64,000 nt of DNA. Source: Thermoanaerobaculia bacterium (lineage in GTDB: Bacteria > Acidobacteriota > Thermoanaerobaculia > Gp7-AA8). The notes beneath the pieces were generated by a model, which did no database searches, had not been told where the DNA came from, and worked only from the letters and a program-made list of their open reading frames with translations. The stretch covers positions 52,814-116,813 of the forward strand of contig DATAJY010000009.1 in NCBI GenBank assembly GCA_036261885.1, written 5' to 3'. A program made the translations under genes and the position numbers. Shown here in pieces: positions 6,270 through 24,440 of the stretch. Each line of letters starts with the position of its first letter. Position 1 is the stretch's first letter.

Positions 6270-6293
6270 CAACGGCGCGAAGTGTACCTGCTT

Positions 6294-6307
6294 ATGACAT
6301 CGGTCAT
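6294..6307. promoter_or_regulatory. perfect palindrome ATGAC-N4-GTCAT in the divergent promoter region between the DUF2064/rSAM operon and qNOR
   Basis: seen in sequence: atgacatcggtcat; 59 nt upstream of the norB ATG and 25 nt upstream of the divergent gene. Confidence 0.3.
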
Positions 6308-6365
6308 GTGCGACGAGGCGGTGACTTCCTACCGTGGCTGCAGGGAAAAAAAGGAAGGGAGCATC

Positions 6366-8627
6366 ATGCAATACCGCAAGCTCTGGATCACACTCGGCAT
6401 CGTCGTTCTGGTGTCCTTCACGATTCTCGGCATCGCCGGCTACAAAGGCATCCAGTCGGCGCCGCCCATCCCGTCGAAAGTCGTGACCACCGACGGTGCC
6501 GTGCTCTTCACCGGGGAAGAAATCCGCAACGGACAGAACGTCTGGCAGTCTCTCGGCGGCCAGGAAATCGGCTCGATCTGGGGGCACGGCGCCTACGTCG
6601 CTCCCGACTGGACCGCGGATTACCTCCATCGCGAGCTCACGCTCATCCTCGATCGCTGGGGCTACGCCACGGCCGGCAGCGAGCAGCAGGCCGCGTTGCG
6701 CCAGCGTCTGCAGACGATGATGCGCACCAACACCTACAACCCGGCCACCGGCGTCGTCACGATCACGAAAGAACGGCAGCAGGCCTTCGAAACACTAGCC
6801 GCGCATTACGCGAGCGTCTTCGGCGCCGGCCGTCCCGAATACGCGATCGCGCGCGGCACGCTCACCGACGCGACGAAATCGCGCGAGATGGTGGCGTTCT
6901 TTTTCTGGACCGCCTGGTCGAGCGCCACGAACCGCCCCGGCAAGAGCATCACCTACACGCAGAACTGGCCGCACGAACCGCTCATCGATCTGAAGCCGAC
7001 CACGGCCGCGGTGATGTGGTCGATGATCAGCGTCATTCTTCTGATCGGCGGCATCGGCGCGCTGGTCTGGTTCTACGTCGCACACCGCGAGCCGCATAAG
7101 AACGACGACGAAGACGAGCTGCCGATCACCGATCCGCTCCTCGGCGCGAATCCGACGCCGTCCCAGAAGGCGACCATCAAATTCTTCCTCACTGCCGCGG
7201 CATTGTGGGTGTTGCAGATCGCGCTCGGCGCGCTCGTCGCGCATTACGGTGTCGAAGGGGCGTCGTTCTTCGGCATCCGCATCGATCACATCCTTCCGTA
7301 CAACATCGTCCGGACATGGCATCTGCAGCTCGGCATCTTCTGGATCGCCACGACGTGGCTCGCCACCGGTCTCTACATCGTTCCGGCGCTGGCCGGCAAA
7401 GAGCCGAAAGGGCAGCGCTTCGCGATCAACATGCTCTACGGCGCGGTCGTCTTCGTCGTGCTCGGCTCGATGACCGGCGAATGGCTCGGCATCAAACAGA
7501 AACTCGGCAACCTCTGGTTCTGGTTCGGCTCGCAGGGGTACGAGTACGTCGACCTCGGACGCGTGTGGCAGATCCTGCTCTTCACGGGACTCTGCTTCTG
7601 GCTCTGGCTGATGTGGCGCGGCGTCAAACCGGCGCTCGATCGCAAAGACTCCTCCCGCTCGCTGCTGATGCTCTTCACCGTCTCCGCGATCGCCATTCCG
7701 ATGTTTTATGGCGCCGGCCTGATGTACGGACAGCGCTCGCATGTCGCCGTCGCTGAATACTGGCGCTGGTGGGTCGTCCATCTCTGGGTCGAAGGGTTCT
7801 TCGAAGTCTTCGCCACGGTGGTGATCGCGTTCCTCTTCACGCGTCTGCGGCTGCTGCGAATCGAAGCGGCCACGAAGGCCGTGCTCTTCTCGACGATCAT
7901 CTTCCTCGGCGGCGGCATCATCGGCACGTTCCATCACCTCTACTTCACCGGCATGCCCGCCTCGATCCTGGCCCTCGGCTCGGTGTTCAGTGCACTGGAA
8001 ATCGTGCCGCTCTGTCTGGTCGGCTTCGAAGCATGGGAAAACCTCAAGCTCTCGAAGGGAACGCAGCGAGCGACGTGGGTTCCGGCCTATCGCTGGCCGA
8101 TCTACTTCTTCGTCGCGGTCGCGTTCTGGAACCTCGTCGGCGCCGGCGTGTTCGGCTTCCTCATCAATCCGCCGATCGCGCTTTATTACATGCAGGGTCT
8201 CAATCTCACGCCGGTGCACGGACACACCGCCCTGTTCGGCGTGTACGGCATGCTCGGGCTCGGTCTCACGCTCTTCTGCCTGCGCGCGCTTCGTCCGGGG
8301 TTGCAGTGGAAAGAGAAAACCGTCGGTGTCGCCTTCTGGCTGATCAACGGCGGTCTGGTGCTGATGGTCGCGCTGTCGATGTTGCCGGTCGGCATCCTGC
8401 AGGCGAATGCCGCGATCAGCGAGGGAGTCTGGTTCGCGCGCTCTGCCGAGTTTCTGCAGACGCCGCTGATGCAGAACCTCCGCTGGCTGCGCGCGATCGG
8501 CGATACCTGCTTCGCCATCGGCGCGCTGATGCTGGCGTGGTTCATGGTCGGCTTGCTCACCGGCCACTCCTACGACGTCACCACGGAAACGGAACCGGCA
8601 CCGAAAGGCGGCGTGCCGCAATACTGA
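6366..8627 (+). CDS. norB: quinol-dependent nitric oxide reductase, single-subunit qNOR (NorB/NorZ family)
   Basis: 753 aa; N-terminal TM plus periplasmic extension, then a 12-TM haem-copper-oxidase-like core with conserved His ligands (HLWVEGFFEVF, TFHHLYF, HGHTALFGVYGM); RBS ggaagggag before the ATG. Confidence 0.9.
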   Translation: MQYRKLWITLGIVVLVSFTILGIAGYKGIQSAPPIPSKVVTTDGAVLFTGEEIRNGQNVWQSLGGQEIGSIWGHGAYVAPDWTADYLHRELTLILDRWGYATAGSEQQAALRQRLQTMMRTNTYNPATGVVTITKERQQAFETLAAHYASVFGAGRPEYAIARGTLTDATKSREMVAFFFWTAWSSATNRPGKSITYTQNWPHEPLIDLKPTTAAVMWSMISVILLIGGIGALVWFYVAHREPHKNDDEDELPITDPLLGANPTPSQKATIKFFLTAAALWVLQIALGALVAHYGVEGASFFGIRIDHILPYNIVRTWHLQLGIFWIATTWLATGLYIVPALAGKEPKGQRFAINMLYGAVVFVVLGSMTGEWLGIKQKLGNLWFWFGSQGYEYVDLGRVWQILLFTGLCFWLWLMWRGVKPALDRKDSSRSLLMLFTVSAIAIPMFYGAGLMYGQRSHVAVAEYWRWWVVHLWVEGFFEVFATVVIAFLFTRLRLLRIEAATKAVLFSTIIFLGGGIIGTFHHLYFTGMPASILALGSVFSALEIVPLCLVGFEAWENLKLSKGTQRATWVPAYRWPIYFFVAVAFWNLVGAGVFGFLINPPIALYYMQGLNLTPVHGHTALFGVYGMLGLGLTLFCLRALRPGLQWKEKTVGVAFWLINGGLVLMVALSMLPVGILQANAAISEGVWFARSAEFLQTPLMQNLRWLRAIGDTCFAIGALMLAWFMVGLLTGHSYDVTTETEPAPKGGVPQY

Positions 8628-8706: not shown

Positions 8707-9825
8707 ATGAAGAAGTTTCTGAAGATCGCCGTCCTCGTCGCCGTCGTACTGGCGGTCGCGACCTGGTGCGTCTTTCAGCTCCCGCAATTCGGCGGGACAT
8801 TCGAAGGCGAGCGGCTGGCGCGCATGCAGCGCTCGCCGGAATTCATCAACGGACGATTTCAGAACGTGCCGCCGCAGCAGACCGACAACTCGCTGCGCAA
8901 GATGTACCGGCTCTACACGCAGGGACAGATACGCGAGCCGCAATTCGCCGTACCGGTGCTCGACGTTTCGCTCGAGCGTCCGCCCTCGCGCGAGCTGCAG
9001 GCCGTCTGGCTCGGCCATGCGAGCGTGCTCGTGGAGCTCGACGGCGTGCGCATCCTCACCGATCCGGTGCTCTCCGACTACGCGTCCCCCGTTCCGCCGC
9101 TCGGACCGAAACGTCTGCACCGCCCGCCGATCGCCATTCCGGATCTCAAAAGCGTCGACGCGGTGGTGATCTCGCACGATCACTACGACCACCTCGACCT
9201 GGAGACCACGCGGCAGCTGGCGCGGAACGGCACGCACTTCTTCGTGCCGCTCGGCGTCGGCGCGCATCTCGAACGGTGGCACGTTCCATCCGCGCAGATC
9301 CACGAAATGGATTGGTGGGAATCGACGCCCTTCCAGGGCATCACCATTCATTGCACGCCGACGCGGCATTACAGCGGACGCAAACGGATGGACAACTCGA
9401 CGCTCTGGTCGTCGTGGTTCATCAAGGGCACGCGCTCGGTCTATTTCAGCGGCGACACCGGCTATGCACCGCACTTTCGGGAGATCCGCCGCCGGCTGGG
9501 GGCGGTCGATCTGACGCTTCTGAAAGTCGGCGCATACGGCGAGACATGGCTCGACATTCACATGGATCCGGAATCGGCCGTGCGTGCTCACCGCGATCTC
9601 GGCGGCCACACGATGCTGCCGGTGCATTGGGCGACGTTCAATCTTTCGTACCACGCGTGGGAAGAGCCGATCGTCCGCACGCTCGCCGCCGCGCAGCGCG
9701 AGCACATCGACGTCATCACTCCCCGTCCCGGTGAGCCGTACGCATTCGGACGACCATTCCGAAATACCGATTGGTTTCGGCGCCTCCCCTCCCGTGCATC
9801 CGGGCGGGATCGCCTGCCTCATTGA
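8707..9825 (+). CDS. MBL-fold metal-dependent hydrolase (NAPE-PLD/Zn-dependent hydrolase-like), secreted or membrane-anchored
   Basis: N-terminal signal/TM MKKFLKIAVLVAVVLAVA; metallo-beta-lactamase motif ISHDHYDHLD. Confidence 0.75.
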   Translation: MKKFLKIAVLVAVVLAVATWCVFQLPQFGGTFEGERLARMQRSPEFINGRFQNVPPQQTDNSLRKMYRLYTQGQIREPQFAVPVLDVSLERPPSRELQAVWLGHASVLVELDGVRILTDPVLSDYASPVPPLGPKRLHRPPIAIPDLKSVDAVVISHDHYDHLDLETTRQLARNGTHFFVPLGVGAHLERWHVPSAQIHEMDWWESTPFQGITIHCTPTRHYSGRKRMDNSTLWSSWFIKGTRSVYFSGDTGYAPHFREIRRRLGAVDLTLLKVGAYGETWLDIHMDPESAVRAHRDLGGHTMLPVHWATFNLSYHAWEEPIVRTLAAAQREHIDVITPRPGEPYAFGRPFRNTDWFRRLPSRASGRDRLPH

Positions 9826-9857
9826 GTGGGCCTGCCCCGGCCGGCCTCGACACCGGT

Positions 9858-9873
9858 GACAGTCGTCACTGTC
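9858..9873. promoter_or_regulatory. perfect palindrome GACAGT-N4-ACTGTC upstream of the decahaem cytochrome gene
   Basis: gacagtcgtcactgtc, about 85 nt upstream of the ATG at 9958. Confidence 0.25.
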
Positions 9874-9957
9874 GGCAATGCTCTCCGATCACCACTGTGG
9901 AACCGGTACTCCTTAAACAATCCGTAGCGGATCGATACGCCACCAAGGAGGTTCACG

Positions 9958-12111
9958 ATGACGGCGTTTCTCAGAGCACTTCTCGTACTGGCCACGGCCG
10001 GGACGATTGCATTTCCCACGCAGCCGCCGCCGAAGCTCACCGCTCCGGAGACGGCCACCAACGGCGGACGCAAACGCGCCGTCGGCACTCCTTCGACTCC
10101 GGTTCCCTCGCGCCCTGAATTCGTCGCGACGGATCTCGAGTACTACCTGACCGACGACGGCATTGCCTACATCCGTCCGGGACTGAAGGTCACGATCAAA
10201 TCGGTGACCGTCCCGACCGATCGCAAGCCGGTCGTCGAATTCACGCTGACCGACAACTTCGATCAGCCGCTCGATCGCCTCGGCAAAACGACGCCGGGCG
10301 TGGTTTCGACGTCGTGGCTGCTGGCCTGGTACAACCCGGAGACGCGCCTCTACACGTCGTACATCACGCGCACCGTGAACGCCGCCGCCGGCAGCCCGAA
10401 GGCCGGCACGTCCGCCGTGCAGGCCACCGGTGAGAACGTCGCCGCGAACTACACCGACAAAGGCAACGGCCTCTACTCGTACAAGTTCAACGCGGCGCTT
10501 CCGGCGAACTTCGACGTGACGAAAACGCACACGCTCGGCGTTTACTCCAGCCGCAATCTCACCGAGCAGATCGGCAAGAACTACTACGCCGACGAAGAGT
10601 TCGACTTCCGTCCCGACGGCCAGACCGTCGTCGAAAAGTGGGACAAGATCCGCGACGTCGGCTCCTGCCAGAACTGCCACGACGCGCAGACGTTCGGTCT
10701 GCACGGCGGCTCGCGCCGCGACGTGAAGCTCTGCGTGATGTGCCACACGCCGCAGACCACCGACCCCGACACCGGCAACAGCGTCGACATGGCGTTGATG
10801 ATCCACAAGATCCACGGCGCCGCGCTGCTCAGCACCCCGTACGTGATCTGGGGCAACGGCAACAGCATTCACGACTACTCCGAAGTCACCTATCCGCAGG
10901 ACACGCGCAACTGCAAGAACTGCCACGAAGGCACGGTGGCCACGGCCATTCCGACGCAGAAGGAAGTCTGGTACACGCAGCCGAGCCGCCGCGCGTGCGG
11001 CGCCTGCCACGACAGCATCAACTGGGTCACAGGCGAAGGCCACCCGGCCGGACCGCAGACCAGCGACGCCACCTGCGCCACCTGCCACGTGCCCGACAGC
11101 GGCAGCGAGTTCGACGCCTCGGTCAAGGGCGGCCACATGATCCCGACGAAGTCTTCGCAGCTTCAGGGCATCAAGGCCACGATCGTCAGCGTGTCGAACG
11201 TGAAGGCCGGTGAGAAGCCGACCATCGTCTACAAGTTCACCAACAACAAGGGCGAGGTGCTCGACGGCACGAAGTTCTCGACCTTCGCACCGATCCACGC
11301 CGGCCCGACGTCGAGCTACACGACGTACTTCCGCGAGTCCGTCACCGCGACGAGCACGAACAAAGCGGCGTTCGACGCCGCCACCGGCAACACCACCTAC
11401 ACGTTCACCAATCCGATCCCGGCCGGATCCACCGGCACCTGGTCGTTCAGCGGTGACTTCTACATCACCTCGACGCTCAAGCGCGGCGACGGCAAGGCCG
11501 ACATTACCGGCGTGCGCGATGCCGCCATCAACCCGCAGAAGTACGTCGGCCTCAACGGAGCCACGACGGTTCCGCGCCGCACGTCGGTCTCGATCGCGTT
11601 GTGCAACGAGTGCCATGACAGCCTCGGCCTGCACGGCGGACAGCGCCGCACGATCGAAGAGTGCGTGATGTGCCACAACCCGGTGAAGGGCGACAAAGCC
11701 GTTCGTCCCGCCACCGAGGGTGAAGAGGAATCGGTCTCCTTCCAGCGTCTCATCCATCGCATTCACAGCGGTCACGAGCTGACGCAGGACTTCACGGTCT
11801 TCGGCAACGGCAGCAGCCGCCACAACTACAACGAGGTCACCTATCCGGGCGATCGCCGCAACTGCGCCTCCTGCCACGTCAGCGATGGACAGCAGCTTCC
11901 GGCCGCCGGTGATCCGGTGATCGCGAAACGCGACTTCTTCTCGCCGCAGGGCTCGGGCACGGCCGCGTGCCTCGGCTGCCATGACAATCGCGATGCGGCA
12001 GCGCACGCGTTCCTGAACACCACCACGTTCGGCGGACAGCCGGCCGAGGCGTGTGCGACGTGCCATGGCAAAACCAAAGAGTGGTCCGTCGACAAATCGC
12101 ATGCCCGGTAA
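9958..12111 (+). CDS. mtrC: MtrC/OmcA-like decahaem c-type cytochrome (beta-domain / pentahaem / beta-domain / pentahaem architecture)
   Basis: 717 aa; signal peptide; exactly 10 CxxCH motifs in two groups of five (aa ~235-385 and ~540-717) separated by a haem-free beta-rich segment, with ~230 aa haem-free beta-rich N-terminus; RBS aaggagg. Confidence 0.8.
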   Translation: MTAFLRALLVLATAGTIAFPTQPPPKLTAPETATNGGRKRAVGTPSTPVPSRPEFVATDLEYYLTDDGIAYIRPGLKVTIKSVTVPTDRKPVVEFTLTDNFDQPLDRLGKTTPGVVSTSWLLAWYNPETRLYTSYITRTVNAAAGSPKAGTSAVQATGENVAANYTDKGNGLYSYKFNAALPANFDVTKTHTLGVYSSRNLTEQIGKNYYADEEFDFRPDGQTVVEKWDKIRDVGSCQNCHDAQTFGLHGGSRRDVKLCVMCHTPQTTDPDTGNSVDMALMIHKIHGAALLSTPYVIWGNGNSIHDYSEVTYPQDTRNCKNCHEGTVATAIPTQKEVWYTQPSRRACGACHDSINWVTGEGHPAGPQTSDATCATCHVPDSGSEFDASVKGGHMIPTKSSQLQGIKATIVSVSNVKAGEKPTIVYKFTNNKGEVLDGTKFSTFAPIHAGPTSSYTTYFRESVTATSTNKAAFDAATGNTTYTFTNPIPAGSTGTWSFSGDFYITSTLKRGDGKADITGVRDAAINPQKYVGLNGATTVPRRTSVSIALCNECHDSLGLHGGQRRTIEECVMCHNPVKGDKAVRPATEGEEESVSFQRLIHRIHSGHELTQDFTVFGNGSSRHNYNEVTYPGDRRNCASCHVSDGQQLPAAGDPVIAKRDFFSPQGSGTAACLGCHDNRDAAAHAFLNTTTFGGQPAEACATCHGKTKEWSVDKSHAR

Positions 12112-12120
12112 ATCGGGACT

Positions 12121-12150
12121 GGTGGAGGAGAGCGCATCGCTCTCCTCCAC
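12121..12150 (+). promoter_or_regulatory. intercistronic stem-loop between mtrC-like and mtrA-like genes
   Basis: gtggaggagagcg-catc-gctctcctccac; 13-bp perfect stem, no T-tract; candidate attenuator or processing site. Confidence 0.35.
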
Positions 12151-12181
12151 GCCTGAGATGCACTCGTAGAAAGGGACGACG

Positions 12182-13093
12182 ATGTCGATCAGACAAACAG
12201 CCATCGGAGGAATCGTCCTCCTCCTCTTCATCGGTCTCTCGCCGGGATCGTTGTTCGCACAGGAGCAACAGCAGCCCGCGGCCGAGAGCTCCGGGATGAC
12301 GTGCGGCGATTGTCACGAGCAGGCGAAGGATTTCGTCGCCAATCCGCACGCGCGCGGCCACGTCGAAAGCGGCACCGTGCCGCGGACGGTATGCGAGTCG
12401 TGCCACGGCGACGGCACCGCACACATGGAGGCGGGCGGCGACACGTCGCTCATCAAAGTGCCGCGCGGTTTCGACGGCGCCGAGAACACCTGCGCCTCGT
12501 GCCACGGAAAAACCACCGAGCGCCGGTCGCATCGTATGGGAGCCCATGCGAATCAGCCGGCCGTGAACTGCCTCTCCTGCCACGCCATTCACAAACCCGC
12601 GCAGACTCTGCACCTCGTCGCCAGACCGGAGCCCGCACTTTGCGCGAGCTGCCACGGCACGCAGGCCTCGTCGTTCCGCAACAAGCCGTACACGCACCGG
12701 CTGGGCGGATCGTCGATGGGCTGCACGTCGTGTCACGACCCGCATGCGCGGCCCGGCCGCGAGAACGTGCGCACCACCGCTTCCGGCGAAACGGTCTGCC
12801 TCAACTGCCACGGTGAAAAACGCGGTCCGTACGTCTTCCAGCATGGCGGCCTGGCCGCGGCCGAGAACGACTGCGCGACCTGTCACGATCCGCACGGCTC
12901 GGCCAATCCCAATCAACTGCGTCGCGCCACCGTCGCGCAGGTCTGCCTGGAATGCCACTCGCCGCTGACGTCCGAGACTCTCGGCTCGCAGCCGCCGTCC
13001 TTCCACAACCTCCGCCTCCCGCGCTACCAGAACTGCACCACCTGTCACGTTGCGGTCCACGGCTCCAACCGTTCGCCGCAGCTCCTGAAGTGA
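12182..13093 (+). CDS. mtrA: MtrA/DmsE/PioA-like periplasmic decahaem c-type cytochrome
   Basis: 303 aa; signal peptide; 10 CxxCH motifs evenly spaced (CGDCH, CESCH, CASCH, CLSCH, CASCH, CTSCH, CLNCH, CATCH, CLECH, CTTCH); size and haem count match the MtrA family. Confidence 0.85.
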   Translation: MSIRQTAIGGIVLLLFIGLSPGSLFAQEQQQPAAESSGMTCGDCHEQAKDFVANPHARGHVESGTVPRTVCESCHGDGTAHMEAGGDTSLIKVPRGFDGAENTCASCHGKTTERRSHRMGAHANQPAVNCLSCHAIHKPAQTLHLVARPEPALCASCHGTQASSFRNKPYTHRLGGSSMGCTSCHDPHARPGRENVRTTASGETVCLNCHGEKRGPYVFQHGGLAAAENDCATCHDPHGSANPNQLRRATVAQVCLECHSPLTSETLGSQPPSFHNLRLPRYQNCTTCHVAVHGSNRSPQLLK

Positions 13094-13101
13094 GGACGAC
13101 C

Positions 13102-15027
13102 ATGCGAATGAAAAACAATTTCACGTGGCTCGCACTCGCCATCACCGTTCTCCTCTCCACCACCGCCTTCGCGCAGGTCACTACCGAGATCGAGGCCGGC
13201 TATCGCTTCACTTCGGTGAGCGGCAACGAAGATCTCTATCGCACGCAGATCGATGAGCGCGAAGGCTTCGTCATCCGCTCGTTCTCCGTCTTCACTCCGC
13301 AGTCGACCGGCCTCACCGATTTCCTGCGCGTCGATGCGACCGACATCGGTGCCGGTCCGTCGAGCTCCGTCCGCGTCGACACCGGCCGCGAGGGCGCCTA
13401 TCGCCTTCGCGTCGGCTGGCGCAGCATGGATGCCTTCAGCGCGTTGCCCGCGTATGCGAATCCGCTGCTCGGGCAGGGCATCATCCCCGGCCAGCACACG
13501 TGGGATCGCGACCGCACGATGTTCGACGTCGACCTCGAGCTCCTTCCGAGCGCGAAGATCACGCCGTTCATCGGCTACTCGCAGTTCCGCAACGAAGGAC
13601 CCGGCACCACGACGTACACCCTCGGCGGCGACGATTACCTGCTCCGGCAGAACCTCGACGAGAAAGAGACCGAGCTGCGCATCGGCACCGGCTTCAACCT
13701 CGGCCCGGTCTACGGCTCCGTCACGCAGGGGTGGCGCAATCTCGAGAGCGATGAAGTCCTGTCGCTCGCGCGTGCCGGCAACAACGGCAGCACACCGGTC
13801 CTCGGCACCAATCCCGACGCATCGCAGATCATCCGCAGCAGCAGTCTCGATGCGGACACACCGTTCACCTCCATCTTCATCAACGGCGACGTGCTCAAAA
13901 ACACGAAGCTCATCGGCAGCTTCCAGCGCTTCTCTTCCGAGGCGGACGGCAGTGACGATGAGGTTGCGAACGGCAACTTCGTTTCGTTCGCTCTGGGACG
14001 TTTCTTCACCGGCTTCAACGAGTCCGTCGACTCGCGGGCCAAAAACCAGACGTGGCGCGGCAGCGCGCGCGTCGAGTCGACGCTCCTGTCGAAGCTCGAC
14101 GTGATGGCCGGGTATCGCACCGAGCATCGTGAGCTCACCGGCAGCGCCTTGATCAACACGCTCTTCCTCGACAGCATCACGTTCGGCGGCGTCGACAAGC
14201 GCAACCTCGAAGAGATTCTCGAAGCCGACAGCTCGATCGACCGCGACGTCGACGTCCTCGAAGCGGCGCTCTCGATGCGCAACCTCGGCCCGTTCGCGTT
14301 CCGCGTCAGCGCCAGCGTCGCCGACTACGACATCACCGTCGATCCCGACCTCGAAGAGATCGTCGTCCCGGGCAACCAGTCCGGCGATTTCTCGCGGCGG
14401 GTGAACACGATCGATGCGAATGCCAGCTACTCGAAGTCGCTGTTCACGATCGGTGCGTCCGCGCGTCTCGATGATGCGAATCGCGCCGTGCTGCGCACCG
14501 ACTACACGACGCGCGATCGCTACCGCGTGCGCGCCTCGTTCCACACGCCGAACAACATGGTTCGGCTCGGCTTCACCGGCGAGGAAACGAACGTCGAAAA
14601 CGATCTCGACGGCGGCGGCTTCAATGCCGACGGCCGCTCCTGGACGATCGACGCCGAAGCCGCGCCGGTAGACGTGCTTCGCGTGCGCGCGTCGTACTCG
14701 ATTCTCGATTCCGAGAGTCGCGCGCGGATTCGCCGCCCCGAAACGTTCGTCGTCGAAACGTGGACGAACGACGAAGACGGCGAAGTGCTCGAAGGCGGCA
14801 TCGCCCTGCTGCTCGCACCGGTGTCGCTCGATCTCAATCTCTCGCGTTACGAAAACGAAGGAACGCTCCCGTTCAGCGTCGACCGCTGGCGGATGCGGAC
14901 CGTCTACGACTTCAAAACGCACTACGGCGTCTCGGCCGAATGGGCCCGGGACCGCTACGAAGAAGAACCCGCGTACGGACAATTCGACGCCGACCGCTAC
15001 GGAATCTTCTTCCGCTACCGCAGGTAG
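13102..15027 (+). CDS. mtrB: MtrB/PioB-like outer-membrane beta-barrel porin (sheath for the decahaem cytochrome)
   Basis: 641 aa; signal MRMKNNFTWLALAITVLLSTTAFAQ; long amphipathic beta-strand-rich sequence ending in an aromatic C-terminus (GIFFRYRR); starts 9 nt after the mtrA-like stop. Confidence 0.7.
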   Translation: MRMKNNFTWLALAITVLLSTTAFAQVTTEIEAGYRFTSVSGNEDLYRTQIDEREGFVIRSFSVFTPQSTGLTDFLRVDATDIGAGPSSSVRVDTGREGAYRLRVGWRSMDAFSALPAYANPLLGQGIIPGQHTWDRDRTMFDVDLELLPSAKITPFIGYSQFRNEGPGTTTYTLGGDDYLLRQNLDEKETELRIGTGFNLGPVYGSVTQGWRNLESDEVLSLARAGNNGSTPVLGTNPDASQIIRSSSLDADTPFTSIFINGDVLKNTKLIGSFQRFSSEADGSDDEVANGNFVSFALGRFFTGFNESVDSRAKNQTWRGSARVESTLLSKLDVMAGYRTEHRELTGSALINTLFLDSITFGGVDKRNLEEILEADSSIDRDVDVLEAALSMRNLGPFAFRVSASVADYDITVDPDLEEIVVPGNQSGDFSRRVNTIDANASYSKSLFTIGASARLDDANRAVLRTDYTTRDRYRVRASFHTPNNMVRLGFTGEETNVENDLDGGGFNADGRSWTIDAEAAPVDVLRVRASYSILDSESRARIRRPETFVVETWTNDEDGEVLEGGIALLLAPVSLDLNLSRYENEGTLPFSVDRWRMRTVYDFKTHYGVSAEWARDRYEEEPAYGQFDADRYGIFFRYRR

Positions 15028-15043
15028 TCCTCCTTCCCCTTTT

Positions 15044-15085
15044 GAAAAAGACGCCGCCCGGGAAACCGGGCGGCGTCTTTTTTTG
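15044..15085 (+). terminator. rho-independent terminator closing the norB-MBL-mtrCAB block
   Basis: aaaagacgccgcccgg-gaaa-ccgggcggcgtctttttttg: 16-bp GC stem followed by a T7 run. Confidence 0.9.
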
Positions 15086-15200
15086 CACGGCTTCGATTTG
15101 CGGACCGAGCGGCCACTTTTGCCGGATGGGACGGGAATCCCACCCGAAAGAATGACGCGAAAGCGCACCTGCCGACCTCCGCAGCGCTATCATTCCATCC

Positions 15201-16343
15201 ATGCCACCCAAACCAGACGAGCTCCCTCTCACTACTGAAGGTCCGGTCGAGCCAGGCGAAGGCAAGCTCGAAGACGTACTGGCCATCTGTCTTTCCGGCG
15301 GCGGGTATCGGGCCATGCTCTTTCACCTCGGCACGCTCTGGTACCTCGCCGATGCCGGCTATCTGCCGAAGCTCGATCGCGTGTCCAGCGTGTCGGGCGG
15401 CTCCATCACCGCGGGTGTGCTCGCGTTGAAATGGAAGGAGCTGCAGTTCGATGCGAACGGCATCGCCACGAATTTCAGAGACGTCGTGGTCGCGCCGGTG
15501 CGCAAGCTGGCCGACAACACCATCGACGCCGGCAACATCATCAAGGCGACGCTCACGCCCGGCACCTCGATCAACGATCGCATCATCGCCTCGTACAAGA
15601 AGCTCGTCTTCGGCGAGGCCACGCTGCAGGACATCGTCGACAAGCCGCGCTTCGTCATCAACGCCACGAATGTGCAGACCGGCTCGCTCTTCCGCTTCTC
15701 GAAGCCCTACATCGCCGACTATCGCATCGGCATGATGGACAAGCCGAAGACCTCGCTCGCGGCCGCGGTGGCGGCATCATCGGCGTTTCCGCCGGTGCTC
15801 TCCCCCGCGCGCATCGACTTCAAACAGAGCGACTGGACGAAGCTCGAAAACGGCGAGTGCTCGCAGCCGCCGTTCACGACGAAGGTGCTGCTCACCGACG
15901 GCGGCGTCTACGACAACATGGGCATCGAGACGGCGTGGAAACGCTGCAAGCGCGTGCTCGTCAGCGATGCCGGCGGCAAGTATCAACCGGAGAAGAATCC
16001 ACATTCCGACTGGGCGCGCCACGCGCTGCGCATCAACTCGACGATCGACAATCAGGTGCGCAGCCTGCGCAAACGCCAGGTCGTCTCCGCATTCAACGAT
16101 CCGACCGACGGACACATCGGCGCGTACTGGGGCATGTGGACGAAGCCGTCGGATTACGCGACGTTCTCCCTGAAGCTCGACGATGCCGCCTGCCTCGAGC
16201 TCGCCAAGACGCCGACGCGTCTGGCGAAGCTGCCGTCCGAGAAACAGGAAGCGATCATCAACTTCGGGTACGGGATGGCCGAGCGCGCGGTGCGCACGCA
16301 TTACGACAAGGCCGCATTCGCGCCGAAGAAGTTTCCGTACTAG
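15201..16343 (+). CDS. patatin-like phospholipase
   Basis: oxyanion motif GGGYRA, nucleophile elbow VSGGS (GxSxG), catalytic Asp in TDGGVYDN. Confidence 0.85.
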   Translation: MPPKPDELPLTTEGPVEPGEGKLEDVLAICLSGGGYRAMLFHLGTLWYLADAGYLPKLDRVSSVSGGSITAGVLALKWKELQFDANGIATNFRDVVVAPVRKLADNTIDAGNIIKATLTPGTSINDRIIASYKKLVFGEATLQDIVDKPRFVINATNVQTGSLFRFSKPYIADYRIGMMDKPKTSLAAAVAASSAFPPVLSPARIDFKQSDWTKLENGECSQPPFTTKVLLTDGGVYDNMGIETAWKRCKRVLVSDAGGKYQPEKNPHSDWARHALRINSTIDNQVRSLRKRQVVSAFNDPTDGHIGAYWGMWTKPSDYATFSLKLDDAACLELAKTPTRLAKLPSEKQEAIINFGYGMAERAVRTHYDKAAFAPKKFPY

Positions 16344-16442
16344 CGATCACTGCGCCGCGGGCACGTGCAGTTTGTGCTCGCGGTAGAACGGTCACGCGTT
16401 CGCGCCGCCGAGGCGGCGGAAGATCGGGGCGTACGACTCCGA

Positions 16443-17489
16443 ATGGTACCGGGACCGCGATTTGCCTTCCCCGCGGCACGGGAGGCCTTCTTGCTTCGAG
16501 TCTTATTGATCGCCGGATCGCAGCGCCGCCAGTACAACTGCCCTGGTGTGGACGGCAAGGCGCGTACATTTCTGAATCGCATGACCGCGCGGCTGCAGGG
16601 CGCGTTCGACATCGACACCGTCGACCTCGCCAACGTCTACGGCGCCGAACGCATCCAGCCGTGCAACGCCTGCGTCTCGACGTCGATGGCGCTCTGCGTC
16701 TGGCCGTGCAACTGTTTCGAGAAGAACGACAAGGACGAGCCCGATCTGATGTGGAACCTCGACCTCTACGCCCGGCTCGATCAAGCCGATGCCTGGGCCA
16801 TCATCGGGCCGGTCAACTGGTACGCACCGTCATCGAATCTGAAATTGATGTTCGATCGCCTCGTCTGCGCGAACGGCGGCAATCCGCGCGAAGAGTTGAT
16901 CGAGCACAAGAACCCCGAGCTGGCGATGGCGCTCGAGCACACCGACGCATGGCAGCAGCTCAGCGTCAATCATCTCGAAGGACGCACGGCCGCGTTTTAC
17001 TGCTACGGTGACGGCGGCGGCGACGAGCTCGATGGCGACGGCCGCCCGAAGAAACTGCGCCACAAGCCGTGGTTCGATCCGAAGGACGAGCCGTTCGCGC
17101 GCGGCCGCGATGCCTACGCGCCGCTGGTCTGGCAGTGCCGCTACAGCGGCATCGAAGTGCCGGATGCGCTGTGGCATTACACGGAGTTCGGCAATCACAA
17201 GCCGTACAGCGACAACCAGGCCGAGGACATCGACGACGCGACCTACTTCGAGTTCGACGCGTGGGCCGACGCGTTCGCGCGGCACGTGCACGACAAAGGA
17301 AAGGTGCCGCCGGGACGCTGGCGCGCGTACGGCTACGAGCCGCCGAAGCACCGGCTCGCCGATCTGAAGCTCGCCTGGCGCGATCGAAAGATGCGTCTCG
17401 GACATCCGCCCGAAGGCTCGTCCGTCGAGGCGCAGCAGAACGAAAAGCTCAATGACGATGTGACGCTGCGGCCCAGGCCGGGCGGATAG
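16443..17489 (+). CDS. flavodoxin-like fold NAD(P)H-dependent FMN reductase family protein with a Cys cluster; start uncertain (ATG 16443 or TTG ~16494)
   Basis: LRVLLIAGSQRR flavodoxin-like N-terminus; Cys motif CNACVSTSMALCVWPCNC. Confidence 0.45.
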   Translation: MVPGPRFAFPAAREAFLLRVLLIAGSQRRQYNCPGVDGKARTFLNRMTARLQGAFDIDTVDLANVYGAERIQPCNACVSTSMALCVWPCNCFEKNDKDEPDLMWNLDLYARLDQADAWAIIGPVNWYAPSSNLKLMFDRLVCANGGNPREELIEHKNPELAMALEHTDAWQQLSVNHLEGRTAAFYCYGDGGGDELDGDGRPKKLRHKPWFDPKDEPFARGRDAYAPLVWQCRYSGIEVPDALWHYTEFGNHKPYSDNQAEDIDDATYFEFDAWADAFARHVHDKGKVPPGRWRAYGYEPPKHRLADLKLAWRDRKMRLGHPPEGSSVEAQQNEKLNDDVTLRPRPGG

Positions 17490-17560
17490 CGCGTTCAGAA
17501 ACGCGGATGACACGAAGGTGCAACAGTGCGTGGCATCACTTCCTCCTAAAATGCGCGGCC

Positions 17561-20308
17561 ATGCGAAAACTGATCGCCTTGCTGATGCTGGTTGCGCTGA
17601 GCGCTGCCGCGCAGGAGAAGAAGCCAACGTTGTCCACCAGACAATTCGATAAAAAGCAGTTCACCATCCCGTACGAGAAAATCGTGCTCGACAACGGACT
17701 CACCGTGCTCGTGCACGAAGACCACAACGTCCCGATCGTGGCCGTGAACCTCTGGTACCACGTCGGCTCGCGGAACGAGCAGCGCGGCCGCACCGGCTTC
17801 GCCCATCTCTTCGAGCACTTCTTCTTCAACGGCTCCGAGAACTATCCGCACGGATTCCGCGAGGCGATGGACGACCTCGGCGCGAACAACCGCAACGGCA
17901 CGACCTCGACCGATCGCACCAATTTCTTCGAGAACGTGCCGACCTCCGCGCTCGAGCGGACGCTCTACCTCGAAGCCGATCGCATGGGCTTCCTGGCCGG
18001 CAACATCTCGAAGGAGATGCTCGAGCGCGAGCGTGGCGTCGTCTCGAACGAAAAACGCCAAGGCGAAAATCAGCCGTACGGACGGGCGCTCAATCGCGCC
18101 ATGGAGATCCTCCATCCGTACGAGCACCCCTACTCGTGGTCCACGATCGGCTCGCTCGACGACCTCGCCGCCGCGTCGCTCGACGACGTGAAGGAGTGGT
18201 ACCGCAGCTACTACGGCCCGAACAATTGCGTTCTCTCGCTGGCCGGCGACATCACCGTCGCACGCGCGCGCGAGCTGGCCTTGAAATACTTCAACGGCAT
18301 CGCCCCCGGGCCGGCACTGGCGCGCGCGGACGAGTGGATCCCGAAGCTCGATCGCAACATCCGCGACGAAATGGAAGATCGCGTCGCGAATACGCGCATC
18401 TATCGCGTCTATCACGCACCGGCGTGGAAGGACGGTTCGCTGCAGCATCTCAATCTGCTCAGCGAAGTGCTGGCCGGCTCGAAGAGCGCGCGCCTCGATC
18501 GGCGGCTGGTCTACGAAAAAGGGCTGGCCACCGAGACCTCCGCGTACGTGTGGGATCGCGAGCTCGGCTCGCTCTTCATCATCGCCGTGACGCTGAAGCC
18601 GGGCGGCGATGCGGCGGTCGTCGAAAAAGAAATGGATGCGATCGTGAGGGAGGTCCTCGAAAACGGACCGACCGCGGAAGAGATCCAGCGCGCGCAGAGC
18701 CGCTCGCTCGCCTCCTTCGTGCGCGGCATCGAACGGCTGGGTGGATTCGGCGGACGCTCCGACGTGCTCGCGGAGAGCATGACCTTCGGCGGCACGCCGG
18801 ACGCCTATCTCGCGCGTCTCGAAACGCTCGCCACGGCCACACCCGCGGACGTGCAGAAGACCGCGAAGAAGTGGCTGGACACGAATCACTACACGCTGAC
18901 CGTTCGCCCGACGGCGGAGCTCAAGCCGGGGAAGACCGAGCTCGATCGCAAGGTGCTGCCGTCGCTCGGCGCCGCGCCGGCAGTGACGTTCCCGCAGGTG
19001 CAGCGCGCCACGCTCTCGAACGGCATGAAGGTCATGCTGCTCGAACGCCACAGCGCGCCGCTCGTGAACCTGACGCTCGCGGTCGACGCCGGCCACGCCA
19101 CCGACGCGCCTGCGAAGGCAGGTCTGGCGTCGCTGACGCTCGATCTGATGGATGAAGGGACGGCGACGCGCGACACGTTCAAGATCTCCGATGATCTCGA
19201 TGCCCTCGGCGCGCAGCTCTCGACGACGAACTCGCTCGATTACTCGTTCGTCGACCTGAGCGCGCTGCCGATGCATCTTCGCGCCTCACTCGACATCCTC
19301 GCCGACGTCGTCCTGCGTCCGGCATTTCCGGCCGACAAGGTGAAACTGCTCACCCAGCAGCGCGTCTCGCGCGTGCGCCAGGAACAGTCGCAGCCGAACA
19401 CGCTCGCCCTCCGGCTCGTGCCTCGCCTGCTCTACGGCGAGAACCATTTGTATGGCAAACCATTCACCGGCACCGGCTACGTCGAGACCGTCGGCGCGCT
19501 CACGCGCGACGATGTCGTCTCGTGGCACAGGAGCTGGTTCCATCCGAATCGCAGCACGATGATCGTCACCGGCGACGTGACGATGGAGAAGCTCGTCCCC
19601 GAGCTCGAGCGCGCCTTCGGCTCGTGGAAAAACGGTGACGCTCCGAAGAAAGAGATCTCCAACGTCGCCCGCACCGCCGGCAAGCGCGTTTACCTCATCG
19701 ACAAACCGGATGCGCCGCAATCGGTGATCGTCGCCGCACATGTTTCCGACGCGGGCGGCACGCCGGAAGACGTCGCGGTCGATACGGTGATTCGCAACTT
19801 CGGCGGGATGGCCACCTCGCGTCTCAATCGCAATCTCCGTCTCGACAAGCACTGGAGCTACGGCACCACCGGCTTCGTCAACGACACGCGCAACCAGCGG
19901 CCGTTCATCGTCGTGGCGCCGGTGCAGACCGACAAGACGAAGGAAGCGATCGTCGAAGTGCAGAAGGAAATTCGCGGCGTGGCCGGCGAGCGGCCGATCA
20001 CCGGCGAGGAGTACGACAGCGTGATGCGCAGCCAGGTGTTGCGCCTCCCCGGCTCGTTCGACACGCTGGCCTCGCTGACCAATGCCGCCATTCGCACGCT
20101 GACCCTCAACCGCGGCGACGACTACTACCAGAAGTACGCGGCGAACGTGCAGGCGCTGACGGAAGCCGATCTGCTGAGCGCGGGGAAGAAGATCGTGCAT
20201 CCCGACGAAGTGATCTGGATCATCGTCGGCGATCTGAAGAAGGTCGAAGCCGGCATCCGCGAGCTGAACCTCGGCGAGATCATGCAGCTCGATCCGAACA
20301 AGCTGTAA
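17561..20308 (+). CDS. M16 family (pitrilysin-like) zinc peptidase, tandem-domain single-chain form, secreted
   Basis: signal MRKLIALLMLVALSAAAQ; inverted zinc motif HLFEHFFF..E; ~915 aa consistent with an N-terminal active half plus C-terminal inactive half. Confidence 0.85.
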   Translation: MRKLIALLMLVALSAAAQEKKPTLSTRQFDKKQFTIPYEKIVLDNGLTVLVHEDHNVPIVAVNLWYHVGSRNEQRGRTGFAHLFEHFFFNGSENYPHGFREAMDDLGANNRNGTTSTDRTNFFENVPTSALERTLYLEADRMGFLAGNISKEMLERERGVVSNEKRQGENQPYGRALNRAMEILHPYEHPYSWSTIGSLDDLAAASLDDVKEWYRSYYGPNNCVLSLAGDITVARARELALKYFNGIAPGPALARADEWIPKLDRNIRDEMEDRVANTRIYRVYHAPAWKDGSLQHLNLLSEVLAGSKSARLDRRLVYEKGLATETSAYVWDRELGSLFIIAVTLKPGGDAAVVEKEMDAIVREVLENGPTAEEIQRAQSRSLASFVRGIERLGGFGGRSDVLAESMTFGGTPDAYLARLETLATATPADVQKTAKKWLDTNHYTLTVRPTAELKPGKTELDRKVLPSLGAAPAVTFPQVQRATLSNGMKVMLLERHSAPLVNLTLAVDAGHATDAPAKAGLASLTLDLMDEGTATRDTFKISDDLDALGAQLSTTNSLDYSFVDLSALPMHLRASLDILADVVLRPAFPADKVKLLTQQRVSRVRQEQSQPNTLALRLVPRLLYGENHLYGKPFTGTGYVETVGALTRDDVVSWHRSWFHPNRSTMIVTGDVTMEKLVPELERAFGSWKNGDAPKKEISNVARTAGKRVYLIDKPDAPQSVIVAAHVSDAGGTPEDVAVDTVIRNFGGMATSRLNRNLRLDKHWSYGTTGFVNDTRNQRPFIVVAPVQTDKTKEAIVEVQKEIRGVAGERPITGEEYDSVMRSQVLRLPGSFDTLASLTNAAIRTLTLNRGDDYYQKYAANVQALTEADLLSAGKKIVHPDEVIWIIVGDLKKVEAGIRELNLGEIMQLDPNKL

Positions 20309-22413: not shown

Positions 22414-22855
22414 TCCGGCGGCTGGCCTCGTAGATGTCGATGTATTGCTTCGGCGGCGTCGCCGCGATGACCTTCGCCACGACGTCGAGCGGCAGGTCTT
22501 CGAGTTTTTTGAATCGCAGACACGACTTCCCGAGATCGAGCTTCTTCCCCGCCTTCGCAAAGCCGTCGCGCAACATCGCCTCGATCTGCGCGTCGCCGTA
22601 GACGTTCATCAGATAGAGCGCGTAGTGGTTTTTCTGCGCCGCGAACGCGGCATAACAGAGCGGCTGCCGGTTGTACGTGTCGGGATAGGTCTCGAGCGGA
22701 ATCCCCCAGCAGACCCCGCCATACCCCATCGTCTCCGCATAACCTTTCGGGATGTTGTTCCGTACCAAAACCAGTACCCTCTCGGCGACCGCCCGGCGCT
22801 CGTCCGGCAACTCGTCGAGATAGGCGTCTACTGATTTCGCTTTGCTCTGGACCAT
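22409..22855 (-). CDS. DUF1801 (YdhG-like) domain protein
   Basis: N-terminus KSVDAYLDELPDERRAVAERV typical of DUF1801. Confidence 0.6.
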   Translation of the reverse strand: MVQSKAKSVDAYLDELPDERRAVAERVLVLVRNNIPKGYAETMGYGGVCWGIPLETYPDTYNRQPLCYAAFAAQKNHYALYLMNVYGDAQIEAMLRDGFAKAGKKLDLGKSCLRFKKLEDLPLDVVAKVIAATPPKQYIDIYEASRRK

Positions 22856-22940
22856 CGGCTCGGAGTGTAATACGCAGCCTCACGCAAGCTGTGACTCATT
22901 CGGCATTCAGCAGCAGGAACAATCACAACAGGGGGAAAAG

Positions 22941-24440
22941 ATGAGAAGAGTGTTGTTGCTCGCGACGCTCGTCCTGACGGCGGTCTCCGCCTTCGGTCAG
23001 GACCTGGCGTCGTTCGAGAAGCGCACGCAGATGCGCAAGCTCGACAACGGTCTGACCGTCATCATCGTGGAACGCCGCGACGCACCGGTGTTCTCGTACG
23101 CGACGATGGTCAACGCCGGCTCGGCACAGGAAGTCCCCGGGATCACCGGTCTGGCACACATGTTCGAGCACATGGCCTTCAAGGGCTCGGACAAAGTCGG
23201 TTCGACGAACTGGGACGCGGAGAAAGCCGCGTTGCAGCGGGTCGAGGAAAAGTACGCCGCGTACGATCGTCTCCGCCGGGCCGAGACGAATCGCGACGAG
23301 GCGGCCGTGGCCGCGGCGAAGAAGGAGTGGGAAGACGCCATCGCCGAGGCCGACAAGCACATGGTCAATGACGAGTTTTCGGAGATCATCGATCGTGCCG
23401 GCGGCGTCGGCATGAACGCCTTCACCTCGTCGGACGTGACCGGCTACTTCTTCTCTCTCCCCTCCAATCGTTTCGAACTGTGGGCATTCATGGAGTCGGA
23501 GCGTTTCCGCAATCCGGTCTTCCGCCAGTTCTACAAAGAGCGCGACGTCGTTTTCGAAGAGCGTCGCATGCGCACGGAATCGAGTCCGTTCGGCCGGCTG
23601 ATGGAACAGTTCCTCGCCACCGCCTTCACCGCACACCCGTACGGGTTCCCCGGTGTCGGCTGGCCGTCGGACCTGCATTCGTTCTCGGCGACGGACGCGG
23701 AGGCGTTCTTCCGCAAGTACTACGTTCCGTCGAACATCGTCATCACCATCGTCGGCGACGTGAATCCCACCGAGGCGTGGCCGATCGTCGAGAAATACTT
23801 CGGCCGTCTGCCGAAATCGCCGCAGCCGGAGGCGCTGCGCACGGTGGAGCCGCCGCAGATCGGCGAGCGTACGGTCGTGTTGCGCGAGACCTCGCAGCCG
23901 ATTTATCTCGAGGGGTACCATCGCCCCTCCGCGGCCGACAAAGACGACCCGACCTATTCGGTCATCTCGATGCTGATGTCGAGCGGCCGCACGTCGCGTC
24001 TGTACAAATCGCTCGTGCGTGACAAGAAGATCGCCGCCGGCGCGTCGGGATTCAGCGGCTTCCCCGGCGAGAAGTATCCGAACCTATTCACGTTCTACGG
24101 CATCACCACGCCGGGTCACACTCCCGATGAAGTCGCGGAAGCGATTCACGCCGAGATCGACAAGCTGAAAACCGAAGACGTTCCGGCCGAGGAGCTGGCA
24201 TCGGTGAAGACCCGCGTGAAAGCGGACCTCATCCGCCGCCTCGGCAGCAACAGCGGCCTCGCTCTTCAACTCGCCGAAGCGCAGACGCTCTACGGCGACT
24301 GGCGCGAGCTCTTCCGCCAGGTCGACGCCATCGACAAGGTCACGGCCGCCGATGTGAAGCGCGTCGCCAACGCCACCTTCTCCGCCAACAACCGCACCGT
24401 CGCAAAAGTCGAATCGGCTCCGAAAGGAGGAGCGAAATGA
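22941..24440 (+). CDS. M16B family zinc peptidase, catalytic subunit, secreted
   Basis: signal MRRVLLLATLVLTAVSAFGQ; HxxEH motif HMFEHMAFKG; RBS gggggaaaag. Confidence 0.85.
   Translation: MRRVLLLATLVLTAVSAFGQDLASFEKRTQMRKLDNGLTVIIVERRDAPVFSYATMVNAGSAQEVPGITGLAHMFEHMAFKGSDKVGSTNWDAEKAALQRVEEKYAAYDRLRRAETNRDEAAVAAAKKEWEDAIAEADKHMVNDEFSEIIDRAGGVGMNAFTSSDVTGYFFSLPSNRFELWAFMESERFRNPVFRQFYKERDVVFEERRMRTESSPFGRLMEQFLATAFTAHPYGFPGVGWPSDLHSFSATDAEAFFRKYYVPSNIVITIVGDVNPTEAWPIVEKYFGRLPKSPQPEALRTVEPPQIGERTVVLRETSQPIYLEGYHRPSAADKDDPTYSVISMLMSSGRTSRLYKSLVRDKKIAAGASGFSGFPGEKYPNLFTFYGITTPGHTPDEVAEAIHAEIDKLKTEDVPAEELASVKTRVKADLIRRLGSNSGLALQLAEAQTLYGDWRELFRQVDAIDKVTAADVKRVANATFSANNRTVAKVESAPKGGAK

Follow-up and report, generated by a model that had tools for sequence, protein, structure and literature searches.

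Gene sets for MtrCAB-type electron conduits have already been reported from the Acidobacteriota. A PSI-BLAST survey against nr (July 2020) recorded mtrCAB in five Acidobacteriia, its 'Group 5', and names no Thermoanaerobaculia (Baker et al., 2022; PMC8805035); MtrABC genes were found in three Acidobacteriota metagenome-assembled genomes (MAGs), and one MtrC together with two MtrA in a MAG of Thermoanaerobaculum aquaticum (Kato et al., 2022; PMC9671151); and mtr homologues are described as common in Acidobacteria (Ruhl et al., 2022; PMC8787282). Cytochrome and beta-barrel loci are also described from marine Thermoanaerobaculia, but their gene content differs (Flieder et al., 2021; PMC8528874). 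Here we describe a cluster of three genes, named C, A and B in their order of transcription, from an uncultured soil Thermoanaerobaculia bacterium (assembly GCA_036261885.1, contig DATAJY010000009.1, positions 52,814 to 116,813 of the forward strand); this whole stretch of 64,000 nucleotides is called the window below. We consider it probable, at roughly 65%, that the cluster is one transcription unit encoding an MtrCAB-type outer-membrane porin–cytochrome conduit.

A preliminary description of this DNA, made from its letters alone, had proposed a divergent MtrCAB-like conduit, and that reading is supported here by the barrel prediction and by the family matches of the cytochromes. The novelty that it implied is weaker, because Mtr homologues were already on record in the phylum: both the kind of system and its presence there are known, C is already correctly named in GenBank, and the cluster is thus a divergent version of a known system that will not surprise a specialist. 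We found no description in the literature of the size and distinctness of the barrel family, of the family-wide absence of a lipid anchor, CxxC motif and disulphide, or of the frequent linkage to CbcL-like and NrfH-like genes. Identity with the locus termed 'extracellular cytochrome' in Ca. Sulfomarinibacter and T. aquaticum (Flieder et al., 2021) was considered and rejected: Supplementary Table 5 of that study lists NHL-repeat and peptidyl-prolyl isomerase (PPIase) genes there, and given this differing gene composition we do not equate the two.

The cytochromes encoded by genes C and A

Open reading frames (ORFs) read from the sequence place three consecutive plus-strand genes at 9958-15027, in the order C-A-B:

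9958..12111, + strand: gene C, OmcA/MtrC-family decahaem c-type cytochrome, 717 aa (TIGR03507, PF22113, AlphaFold2 (AF2) model; identical to HEX2833397.1)
12182..13093, + strand: gene A, MtrA/DmsE-like periplasmic decahaem c-type cytochrome, 303 aa (match to 6r2q_A, TIGR03508 score)
13102..15027, + strand: gene B, predicted 26-strand outer-membrane beta-barrel, 641 aa (AF2, Foldseek, HHalign)

G+C at the third codon positions of these ORFs is 0.83-0.87, the level usual for real genes within the window, and all three proteins begin with Sec-type signal peptides. The same proteins stand in a public MAG labelled 'Thermoanaerobaculia bacterium' as HEX2833397-99, with identical sequences. Annotation there recognises only one of the three genes, giving C the name OmcA/MtrC; A is entered as 'cytochrome c3 family protein' and B as 'hypothetical protein'. 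Homologues were drawn from a scan of one genome per GTDB species, which returned 80 related loci.

Protein C contains exactly ten CxxCH motifs, at residues 237, 259, 319, 347 and 373 and again at 549, 569, 636, 671 and 699, that is, in two blocks of five with a haem-free stretch ahead of each, and its 25 histidines are enough for bis-His ligation of ten haems. It scores 443.4 bits on the TIGR03507 model (cut-off 209.3; residues 86-715 against profile positions 3-672) and 170.8 bits on PF22113 (cut-off 30); among sequences of solved structures it is closest to MtrF (3pmq, 3.8e-36), followed by OmcA, MtrC and UndA. The AF2 model, built from 37 homologues and, as for B, as a haem-free monomer (mean predicted local distance difference test score, pLDDT, 77.8; predicted template-modelling score, pTM, 0.72), shows a beta/haem/beta/haem succession: domain I, beta, 77-217; domain II, five haems, 230-395; domain III, beta, 406-531; domain IV, five haems, 545-717. 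All of the top 15 Foldseek matches to this model are Shewanella outer-membrane cytochromes (OmcA, UndA, MtrC, MtrF), with OmcA the best (E 3.5e-31, TM about 0.63). By its family matches and predicted structure, C is a full-length member of the OmcA/MtrC family with the four-domain fold, and the two pentahaem blocks, each behind a haem-free beta domain, are as first described.

C departs from that family's Shewanella members in its cysteines. Despite the Sec signal peptide there is no lipobox: the first cysteine is residue 237, which belongs to haem 1, and all 20 cysteines lie inside CxxCH motifs. The preliminary description had noted the missing lipobox in C, and the feature extends through the family, the first cysteine being the first haem cysteine in nearly all of about 60 homologues (only that of locus L020 has a weakly lipobox-like cysteine), while 43 of 58 homologues have no extra cysteine. 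C likewise has no cysteine pair for a domain-III disulphide (CX8-15C); in Shewanella this conserved disulphide is reportedly tied to flavin binding. Between the signal peptide and domain I lies a disordered tail of about 50 residues (residues ~20-70) with the basic motif GRKRAVG at residues 37-43 (window 10066-10086). Across the homologues (L002-L079) the tail motif reads [RK]x[RK]R[AS], with the consensus RRRAVGxP and with R40 and P45 at least 90% conserved, and it may stand in, for anchoring or sorting, for the lipid anchor that is absent. No gsp (type II secretion) genes were seen among the scanned window ORFs.

Protein A carries ten CxxCH motifs, evenly spaced as the preliminary description had it (24-33 residues apart), no other cysteines, 23 histidines, again enough for bis-His ligation of ten haems, and a signal peptide cleaved around LFA-QE. 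Residues 25-298 align with residues 54-326 of 6r2q_A, the MtrA of the solved Mtr complex (E 3.3e-29), and identity to MtrA and DmsE references from Shewanella-type loci (among them the MtrA proteins of L081 and L082) is 30-32%. On the DmsE-family model TIGR03508 its score of 188.8 bits, from residues 40-298 aligned to profile positions 4-257, lies just under the cut-off of 192.2; this near miss explains the GenBank name. The decahaem model of the GSU2203 family, NF041028, gives 146 bits against a cut-off of 325. Membership of unrelated multihaem families of the NrfB or OmcB kind had been raised as one finding that would count against a conduit; in the event C fits OmcA/MtrC by both TIGR03507 and fold, and A aligns with MtrA over its full length.

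The predicted barrel of gene B and its relation to MtrB

Gene B is taken to start at 13102; GenBank uses an alternative start two codons later, at 13108, and a longer ORF from 12952, which overlaps A, was not used. The protein has a signal peptide cleaved around AFA-QV and no cysteine. Its AF2 model, from a 41-sequence alignment (pLDDT 83.4, pTM 0.74), is a barrel of 26 beta strands by DSSP (the preliminary description had expected more than 20) that contains no plug domain. Foldseek places 6r2q_B, MtrB, at the top (E 7.4e-14, TM 0.64), with all other matches at TM 0.49 or less; 529 residues of the model align with MtrB. MtrB in the solved Mtr complex has 26 strands as well. The signal peptide and the richness in beta strands agree with what had been claimed for B; the aromatic C-terminus does not, as the last residues are GIFFRYRR, which puts Tyr at -3 and Phe at -5 and -6 and makes the final residue a non-aromatic one. 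Across the family (window 15025-15027 and homologues) the C-terminus follows the pattern Y/F-x-R-W/Y-R/H-P/R, which, having no terminal aromatic, is an atypical beta-signal for an outer-membrane protein; its consensus is Y/F-x-R-W-R/H-P.

At the level of sequence the relation to MtrB is remote. B has no match in Pfam or NCBIfam, including the MtrB/PioB models PF11854 and TIGR03509; BLASTP against MtrB detects no similarity (E above 0.28); and phmmer and hmmsearch against PDB sequences, with B alone and with both family profiles, return only a spurious match to a major histocompatibility complex protein. Some relatives come closer, at sub-threshold scores: 12 of 41 match PF11854 (best 2.8e-6) and 10 of 41 match TIGR03509 (best 1.6e-4, about 12 bits against 240), and these matches, found in about a quarter of the relatives, are collinear. 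A Pfam scan of ten sampled distant family members gave no PF11854 match. The profile searches by hidden Markov model (HMM) proposed in the preliminary description have a mixed outcome, with C passing TIGR03507, A falling at 188.8 against 192.2 on TIGR03508, and B matching neither PF11854 nor TIGR03509.

Profile–profile comparison reaches further. As reference we aligned three PF11854 barrels found through their MtrA neighbours (two Shewanella-type MtrB and one DmsF), and compared them with a broad B-family profile of 51 sequences that includes members at 19-22% identity, drawn from an exhaustive search of representative sequences (Neff 5.3). HHalign aligns the two end to end over 560 columns with 97.8% probability (E 9.7e-13), whereas reversed or block-shuffled versions of either alignment reach at most 3.6% (E at least 0.012), which argues that the signal is more than beta-barrel periodicity. 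A narrow profile of 41 sequences gave 2% against the MtrB reference and so reached no homology; the homology of B thus rests on one broad profile, compared with a three-sequence MtrB alignment, together with the predicted structure. On these grounds B is a remote MtrB homologue with the same predicted architecture that lies outside the curated MtrB/PioB family. It lacks the N-terminal CxxC that is present, as CKGC or CKRC, in all three reference barrels.

Could B instead be an unrelated protein, a large porin or transporter that happens to be encoded beside two cytochromes, so that no conduit exists? The absence of any Pfam or NCBIfam match and of pairwise similarity to MtrB would fit such a protein, but the 26 predicted strands without a plug, the long structural alignment with MtrB and the end-to-end profile alignment with its clean controls would not. 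Nor would the gene order: A sits immediately 5′ of B, with a gap of 8 nt here and of 2-19 nt in most related loci, the synteny is invariant wherever there is sufficient upstream DNA, and even very distant family members, at about 20% identity, are still paired with MtrA-like decahaems. We regard an unrelated porin as very improbable, and B as the barrel partner of A as much the better reading.

The family is large. A word-indexed search found 480 relatives of B, mostly labelled Thermoanaerobaculia bacterium, and when 1.84 billion representatives were searched exhaustively with a profile, 997 B-family clusters came up at E 1e-3 or below, 221 of them at 1e-30 or below. Because this family escapes the MtrB/PioB models, screens that look for all three genes with those profiles probably miss the module. 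Weak matches to NF041027, the NCBIfam model of the GSU2204 family of CXXCH-containing (seleno)proteins, were seen in 15 of 51 relatives (best 4e-8), against 7 of 51 for MtrB/PioB; B itself does not match it, and its relatives reach at most 32.5 bits against a cut-off of 350. Together with the 146 bits of A on the GSU2203 model, this hints that Geobacter GSU2203/2204 is another decahaem–barrel pair related to the B family.

Transcription, conservation and direction of electron flow

The spacer between C and A is 70 nt. The gap between A and B measures 8 nt (14 nt if the GenBank start of B is taken), not the 9 nt first given, and the C-A-B order with tight A-B coupling stands. Three further features frame or divide the cluster:

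9945..9951, + strand: Shine–Dalgarno sequence AAGGAGG, strong, 6 nt before the ATG of C, read from the sequence
12122..12150, + strand: GC-rich hairpin with a perfect 13-bp stem, GTGGAGGAGAGCG-CAT-CGCTCTCCTCCAC, directly 3′ of the C stop codon, without a U-tract
15050..15084, + strand: intrinsic terminator with a 12-bp GC stem, GACGCCGCCCGG / CCGGGCGGCGTC, loop GAAA, then T7, read from the sequence

The Shine–Dalgarno sequence sits inside a 132-nt spacer 3′ of an upstream metallo-beta-lactamase (MBL) hydrolase gene, and a consensus scan of 9700-15400 found no sigma-70 consensus promoter. The terminator closes the C-A-B unit; it was not among the sites given by the consensus scan and was found by direct reading, and as A5 stands just before its stem it could work in both directions. 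From the Shine–Dalgarno sequence, the 8-nt A-B gap and the terminator, C, A and B would form one transcription unit. Within it, the region 12105-12190 around the hairpin folds at -37.9 kcal/mol (z -3.66; 0 of 200 shuffles equally stable). Of 61 related loci, 51 have a perfect GC-rich hairpin with a stem of 9-15 bp and no U-tract at the same place, just past the stop codon of the mtrC-like gene; its sequence varies among loci (in the C-A spacers of L002-L016 and others) while its position is kept. It is probably an intercistronic RNA element, a stabiliser or attenuator, which may protect the C portion of the mRNA or reduce transcription that runs on into A and B.

The genome had been called very high in G+C, which the values do not bear out: G+C is 0.63-0.67 across the window and 0.648 in the cluster. 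As the cluster matches its surroundings there is no compositional signal for recent horizontal transfer, and recent acquisition was rejected as an explanation on that profile.

The 80 loci come nearly all from Thermoanaerobaculia or other Acidobacteriota MAGs, with a few assigned to Holophagae or Ca. Sulfomarinibacter and one bin each under the labels Longimicrobiales and Methylomirabilota. Wherever the upstream DNA is long enough (about 66 of the 80 loci), the C-A-B order and strand are kept, a recurrence far beyond chance. Ten CxxCH motifs are present in 70 of 72 A homologues and in all C homologues except two truncated ones. Over 61 loci, as one protein of the set becomes less like its window counterpart, so do the other two (Spearman 0.66-0.82), and the module therefore evolves as a unit. 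The acidobacterial locus L085 (997-9685) has a C-A-B set whose barrel is of the B family and, after it, another MtrA-like gene with a true MtrB/PioB barrel that passes PF11854; as the two barrels coexist there, each with its own MtrA-like partner, their families are distinct paralogous and functionally parallel lineages. Another locus, L084 (552-9688), holds two pairs of an MtrA-like gene with a B-family gene, one of them adjoining a molybdopterin oxidoreductase in a dmsEFAB-like arrangement.

Such an arrangement raises a different possibility, that A and B are a generic DmsEF-like module and that C is secreted or loosely bound, reducing mainly soluble or colloidal acceptors (chelated metals, humics, dimethyl sulfoxide (DMSO)-like compounds, shuttles) rather than serving as a fixed, mineral-contacting reductase. 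A distant B-family member beside a molybdopterin oxidoreductase is what dmsEFAB would lead one to expect, C without a lipobox is possibly not tethered to the membrane, and the hairpin after C could uncouple its expression from that of A and B. C, A and B are nevertheless inherited and diverge together, no soluble-substrate reductase adjoins the module in the window, and C shows all four domains of the OmcA/MtrC fold, which serves for contact with minerals and flavins. We therefore think a DmsEF-like module with a detached C improbable, and return to the three proteins as one complex.

What C and A are and how they fold, the predicted MtrB-like fold and remote homology of B and the conservation of the module were all computed here. 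By homology with the solved MtrCAB complex, A would lie inside B and C at the cell surface; the direction of flow and the acceptor are inferred as well. In this scheme A, a rod of ten bis-His c-haems, would be exported to the periplasm and thread into the lumen of B, whose 26-strand barrel would insulate it across the outer membrane; C would dock on the outer face of B, accept electrons from the last haem of A and hand them to acceptors outside the cell, for example Fe(III) or Mn(IV) oxides, humic substances, flavins or other cells. Outward flow of this kind would amount to anaerobic respiration of extracellular acceptors. Having no lipid anchor, C must on this scheme be held on the cell by protein contacts with A and B, and the conserved basic N-terminal tail may help to hold it there.

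Candidate inner-membrane partners were counted in the 51 related loci of at least 12 kb. An NrfH-like membrane cytochrome with six haems lies beside the module in 19 of the 51, a CbcL-like protein (11 CxxCH motifs fused to an FdnI-type cytochrome b; TIGR01583, 1.2e-19) in 16, and a four-haem NapC/NirT protein directly after B in four. Examples of the partner genes are L029:1855-3732 (-), L029:374-1855 (-) and L058:10199-10894 (+), with equivalents in about 25 loci; such loci join a Shewanella-type outer conduit to Geobacter-type inner-membrane modules. The class has a single cultured member, T. aquaticum, and this organism is a reducer of Fe(III) and Mn(IV) (PMC8528874, PMC9671151). The partners seen in relatives, together with this reduction, make outward electron transfer more likely than inward, the haem chain itself being intrinsically reversible.

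Inward flow through the same complex is nonetheless a live alternative, because the window holds no partner cytochromes within its 64 kb and has instead a quinol-dependent nitric oxide reductase (qNOR) gene upstream. Fe(II), reduced humics, a cathode or a partner cell would then supply the electrons, as for the MtoAB and PioAB systems of iron oxidisers, and these electrons could feed respiration of oxygen or nitrogen oxides, for example through that qNOR. Decahaem wires are reversible, as is established for MtrCAB; the qNOR gene (NorB cytochrome-c-like domain and COX1; PF22085, PF00115) lies at 6282-8627, 1.3 kb before the cluster and, like it, on the + strand, and a close relative, L003, retains it at 82% identity; no quinol-oxidising cytochrome adjoins the module here; and B lacks the CxxC motif. 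In MtrB this motif is said to be specific to metal-reducing Gammaproteobacteria. Set against these points, the known Fe(II)-oxidising modules MtoAB and PioAB have no surface MtrC while C is always present here, the qNOR neighbourhood recurs in only 1 of 80 loci, the CbcL-like and NrfH-like partners of relatives serve outward transfer in Geobacter, and the sole cultured member of the class is an iron and manganese reducer. Inward flow thus seems to us unlikely, though much less so than the two alternatives discussed above, and we favour an outward conduit.

Several points weigh against that preferred reading. The 64-kb window contains no inner-membrane quinol dehydrogenase, type II secretion genes or further multihaem genes, and its only other cytochromes c, one dihaem and one monohaem, are both far from the cluster. 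B fails both curated MtrB/PioB models, its narrow profile misses MtrB in HHalign (2%) and its hmmsearch against the PDB came back empty; A falls 3.4 bits under the DmsE-family cut-off; and C has no lipid anchor that would retain it at the surface. The AF2 models are of single chains without haems and not of a complex, and the direction of flow cannot be read from sequence.

A broader reading, which we offer tentatively and with less assurance than that of the cluster itself, is that the lineage may be a large group of Mtr-type conduits, mainly inherited vertically in Thermoanaerobaculia and neighbouring Acidobacteriota, with an anchor-free C, often wired to CbcL-like or NrfH-like proteins, and with a barrel that is sister to MtrB/PioB; this sister family would comprise about 1000 clusters at 50% identity that curated models in Pfam and NCBIfam fail to see. 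On this broader reading, surveys based on such profile models would count too few complete conduits of the Mtr type among the Acidobacteriota of soil and sediment, and the lineage would offer synthetic biology a naturally lipid-anchor-free MtrC. In heterologous hosts, Mtr expression is held back by the secretion of MtrC and the folding of MtrB (PMC12175506). Soils, sediments, permafrost and wastewater commonly harbour Thermoanaerobaculia. If the cluster works as an MtrCAB conduit, it would give them a direct route to respiration of iron or manganese oxides or humics, or to electron uptake, and would affect models of carbon and metal cycling. The anchor-free C and the pairing with CbcL-like or NrfH-like proteins in many genomes are testable variations on the Shewanella paradigm.

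Other neighbours of the cluster include a patatin-like phospholipase gene (15201-16343) and an FMN-reductase-like gene (flavin mononucleotide; 16365-17489) downstream, and, within 9 kb downstream, three genes for secreted M16 (insulinase-type) peptidases (17507-20308, 22842-24440 and 24437-26548, all +). A functional link of the module to the qNOR, MBL hydrolase, patatin, FMN reductase or M16 peptidase genes was considered and rejected, as none of them is conserved beside the module except the qNOR in L003. Further away, a gene for a TIR-domain protein (40153-41550, -) lies directly upstream of one for an nSTAND1 nucleoside triphosphatase (37575-40127, -; PF20703, 3.7e-100), a pair that looks like a candidate anti-phage or signalling module.

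Comparison with known systems

The closest likeness is to MtrCAB of Shewanella (6R2Q, S. baltica, and the structures of MtrC, MtrF, OmcA and UndA). Gene order and tight A-B coupling are the same, as are the 5+5 haem, four-domain layout of C and the ten haems of A, which aligns end to end at 30% identity, and B shares the predicted 26 strands, with MtrB as its best structural match and homology at the level of profiles. In contrast, C is only 21-25% identical to the Shewanella proteins, which have an LVGC or LAGC lipobox where C has none, and reference MtrC proteins have 24-25 cysteines whereas C has none outside its CxxCH motifs and hence no domain-III disulphide. Window B, unlike Shewanella MtrB, goes undetected by BLASTP and curated HMMs and lacks the N-terminal CxxC; the window has no omcA or mtrDEF paralogue and no cymA; and the host belongs to the Acidobacteriota, not the Gammaproteobacteria.

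Nearer by taxonomy, the 'Group 5' mtrCAB of Acidobacteriia (PMC8805035) similarly has a single mtrC and no inner-membrane quinol oxidoreductase beside the cluster, and its MtrB, like B, bears only the GenBank label 'hypothetical protein'. The hosts are of a different class (Bryobacterales or unclassified Acidobacteriia), the proteins differ in size (MtrC 677, MtrA 326 and MtrB 677 aa), the A and B genes overlap, unlike those of the window, and a periplasmic tetrahaem gene, absent from the window, lies directly downstream of mtrB.

DmsEF, MtoAB and PioAB share with the cluster an MtrA-family decahaem gene and a large barrel gene immediately downstream, and distant B-family members are found in such pairs (L084, L085). 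They differ in having no surface MtrC-type cytochrome, whereas here A is preceded by a gene of the OmcA/MtrC family, as it is in all related loci whose upstream DNA suffices, and their barrels pass PF11854 (for example the DmsF of L083), which B does not.

The porin–cytochrome complexes of Geobacter follow the same plan, with one cytochrome in the periplasm, a barrel, and another cytochrome at the surface. The OmaB/OmbB/OmcB complex uses an octahaem cytochrome and a dodecahaem lipoprotein, in contrast to the haem counts of 10 and 10 in the window, and is not known to be homologous to Mtr. With the GSU2203/GSU2204 family the scores of A and of B relatives are far below the cut-offs (325 and 350 bits), and B has no CxxCH. 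At the inner membrane Geobacter has the cytochromes CbcL and ImcH, and many relatives of the window cluster carry the CbcL-like fusion and NrfH-like six-haem proteins next to C-A-B.

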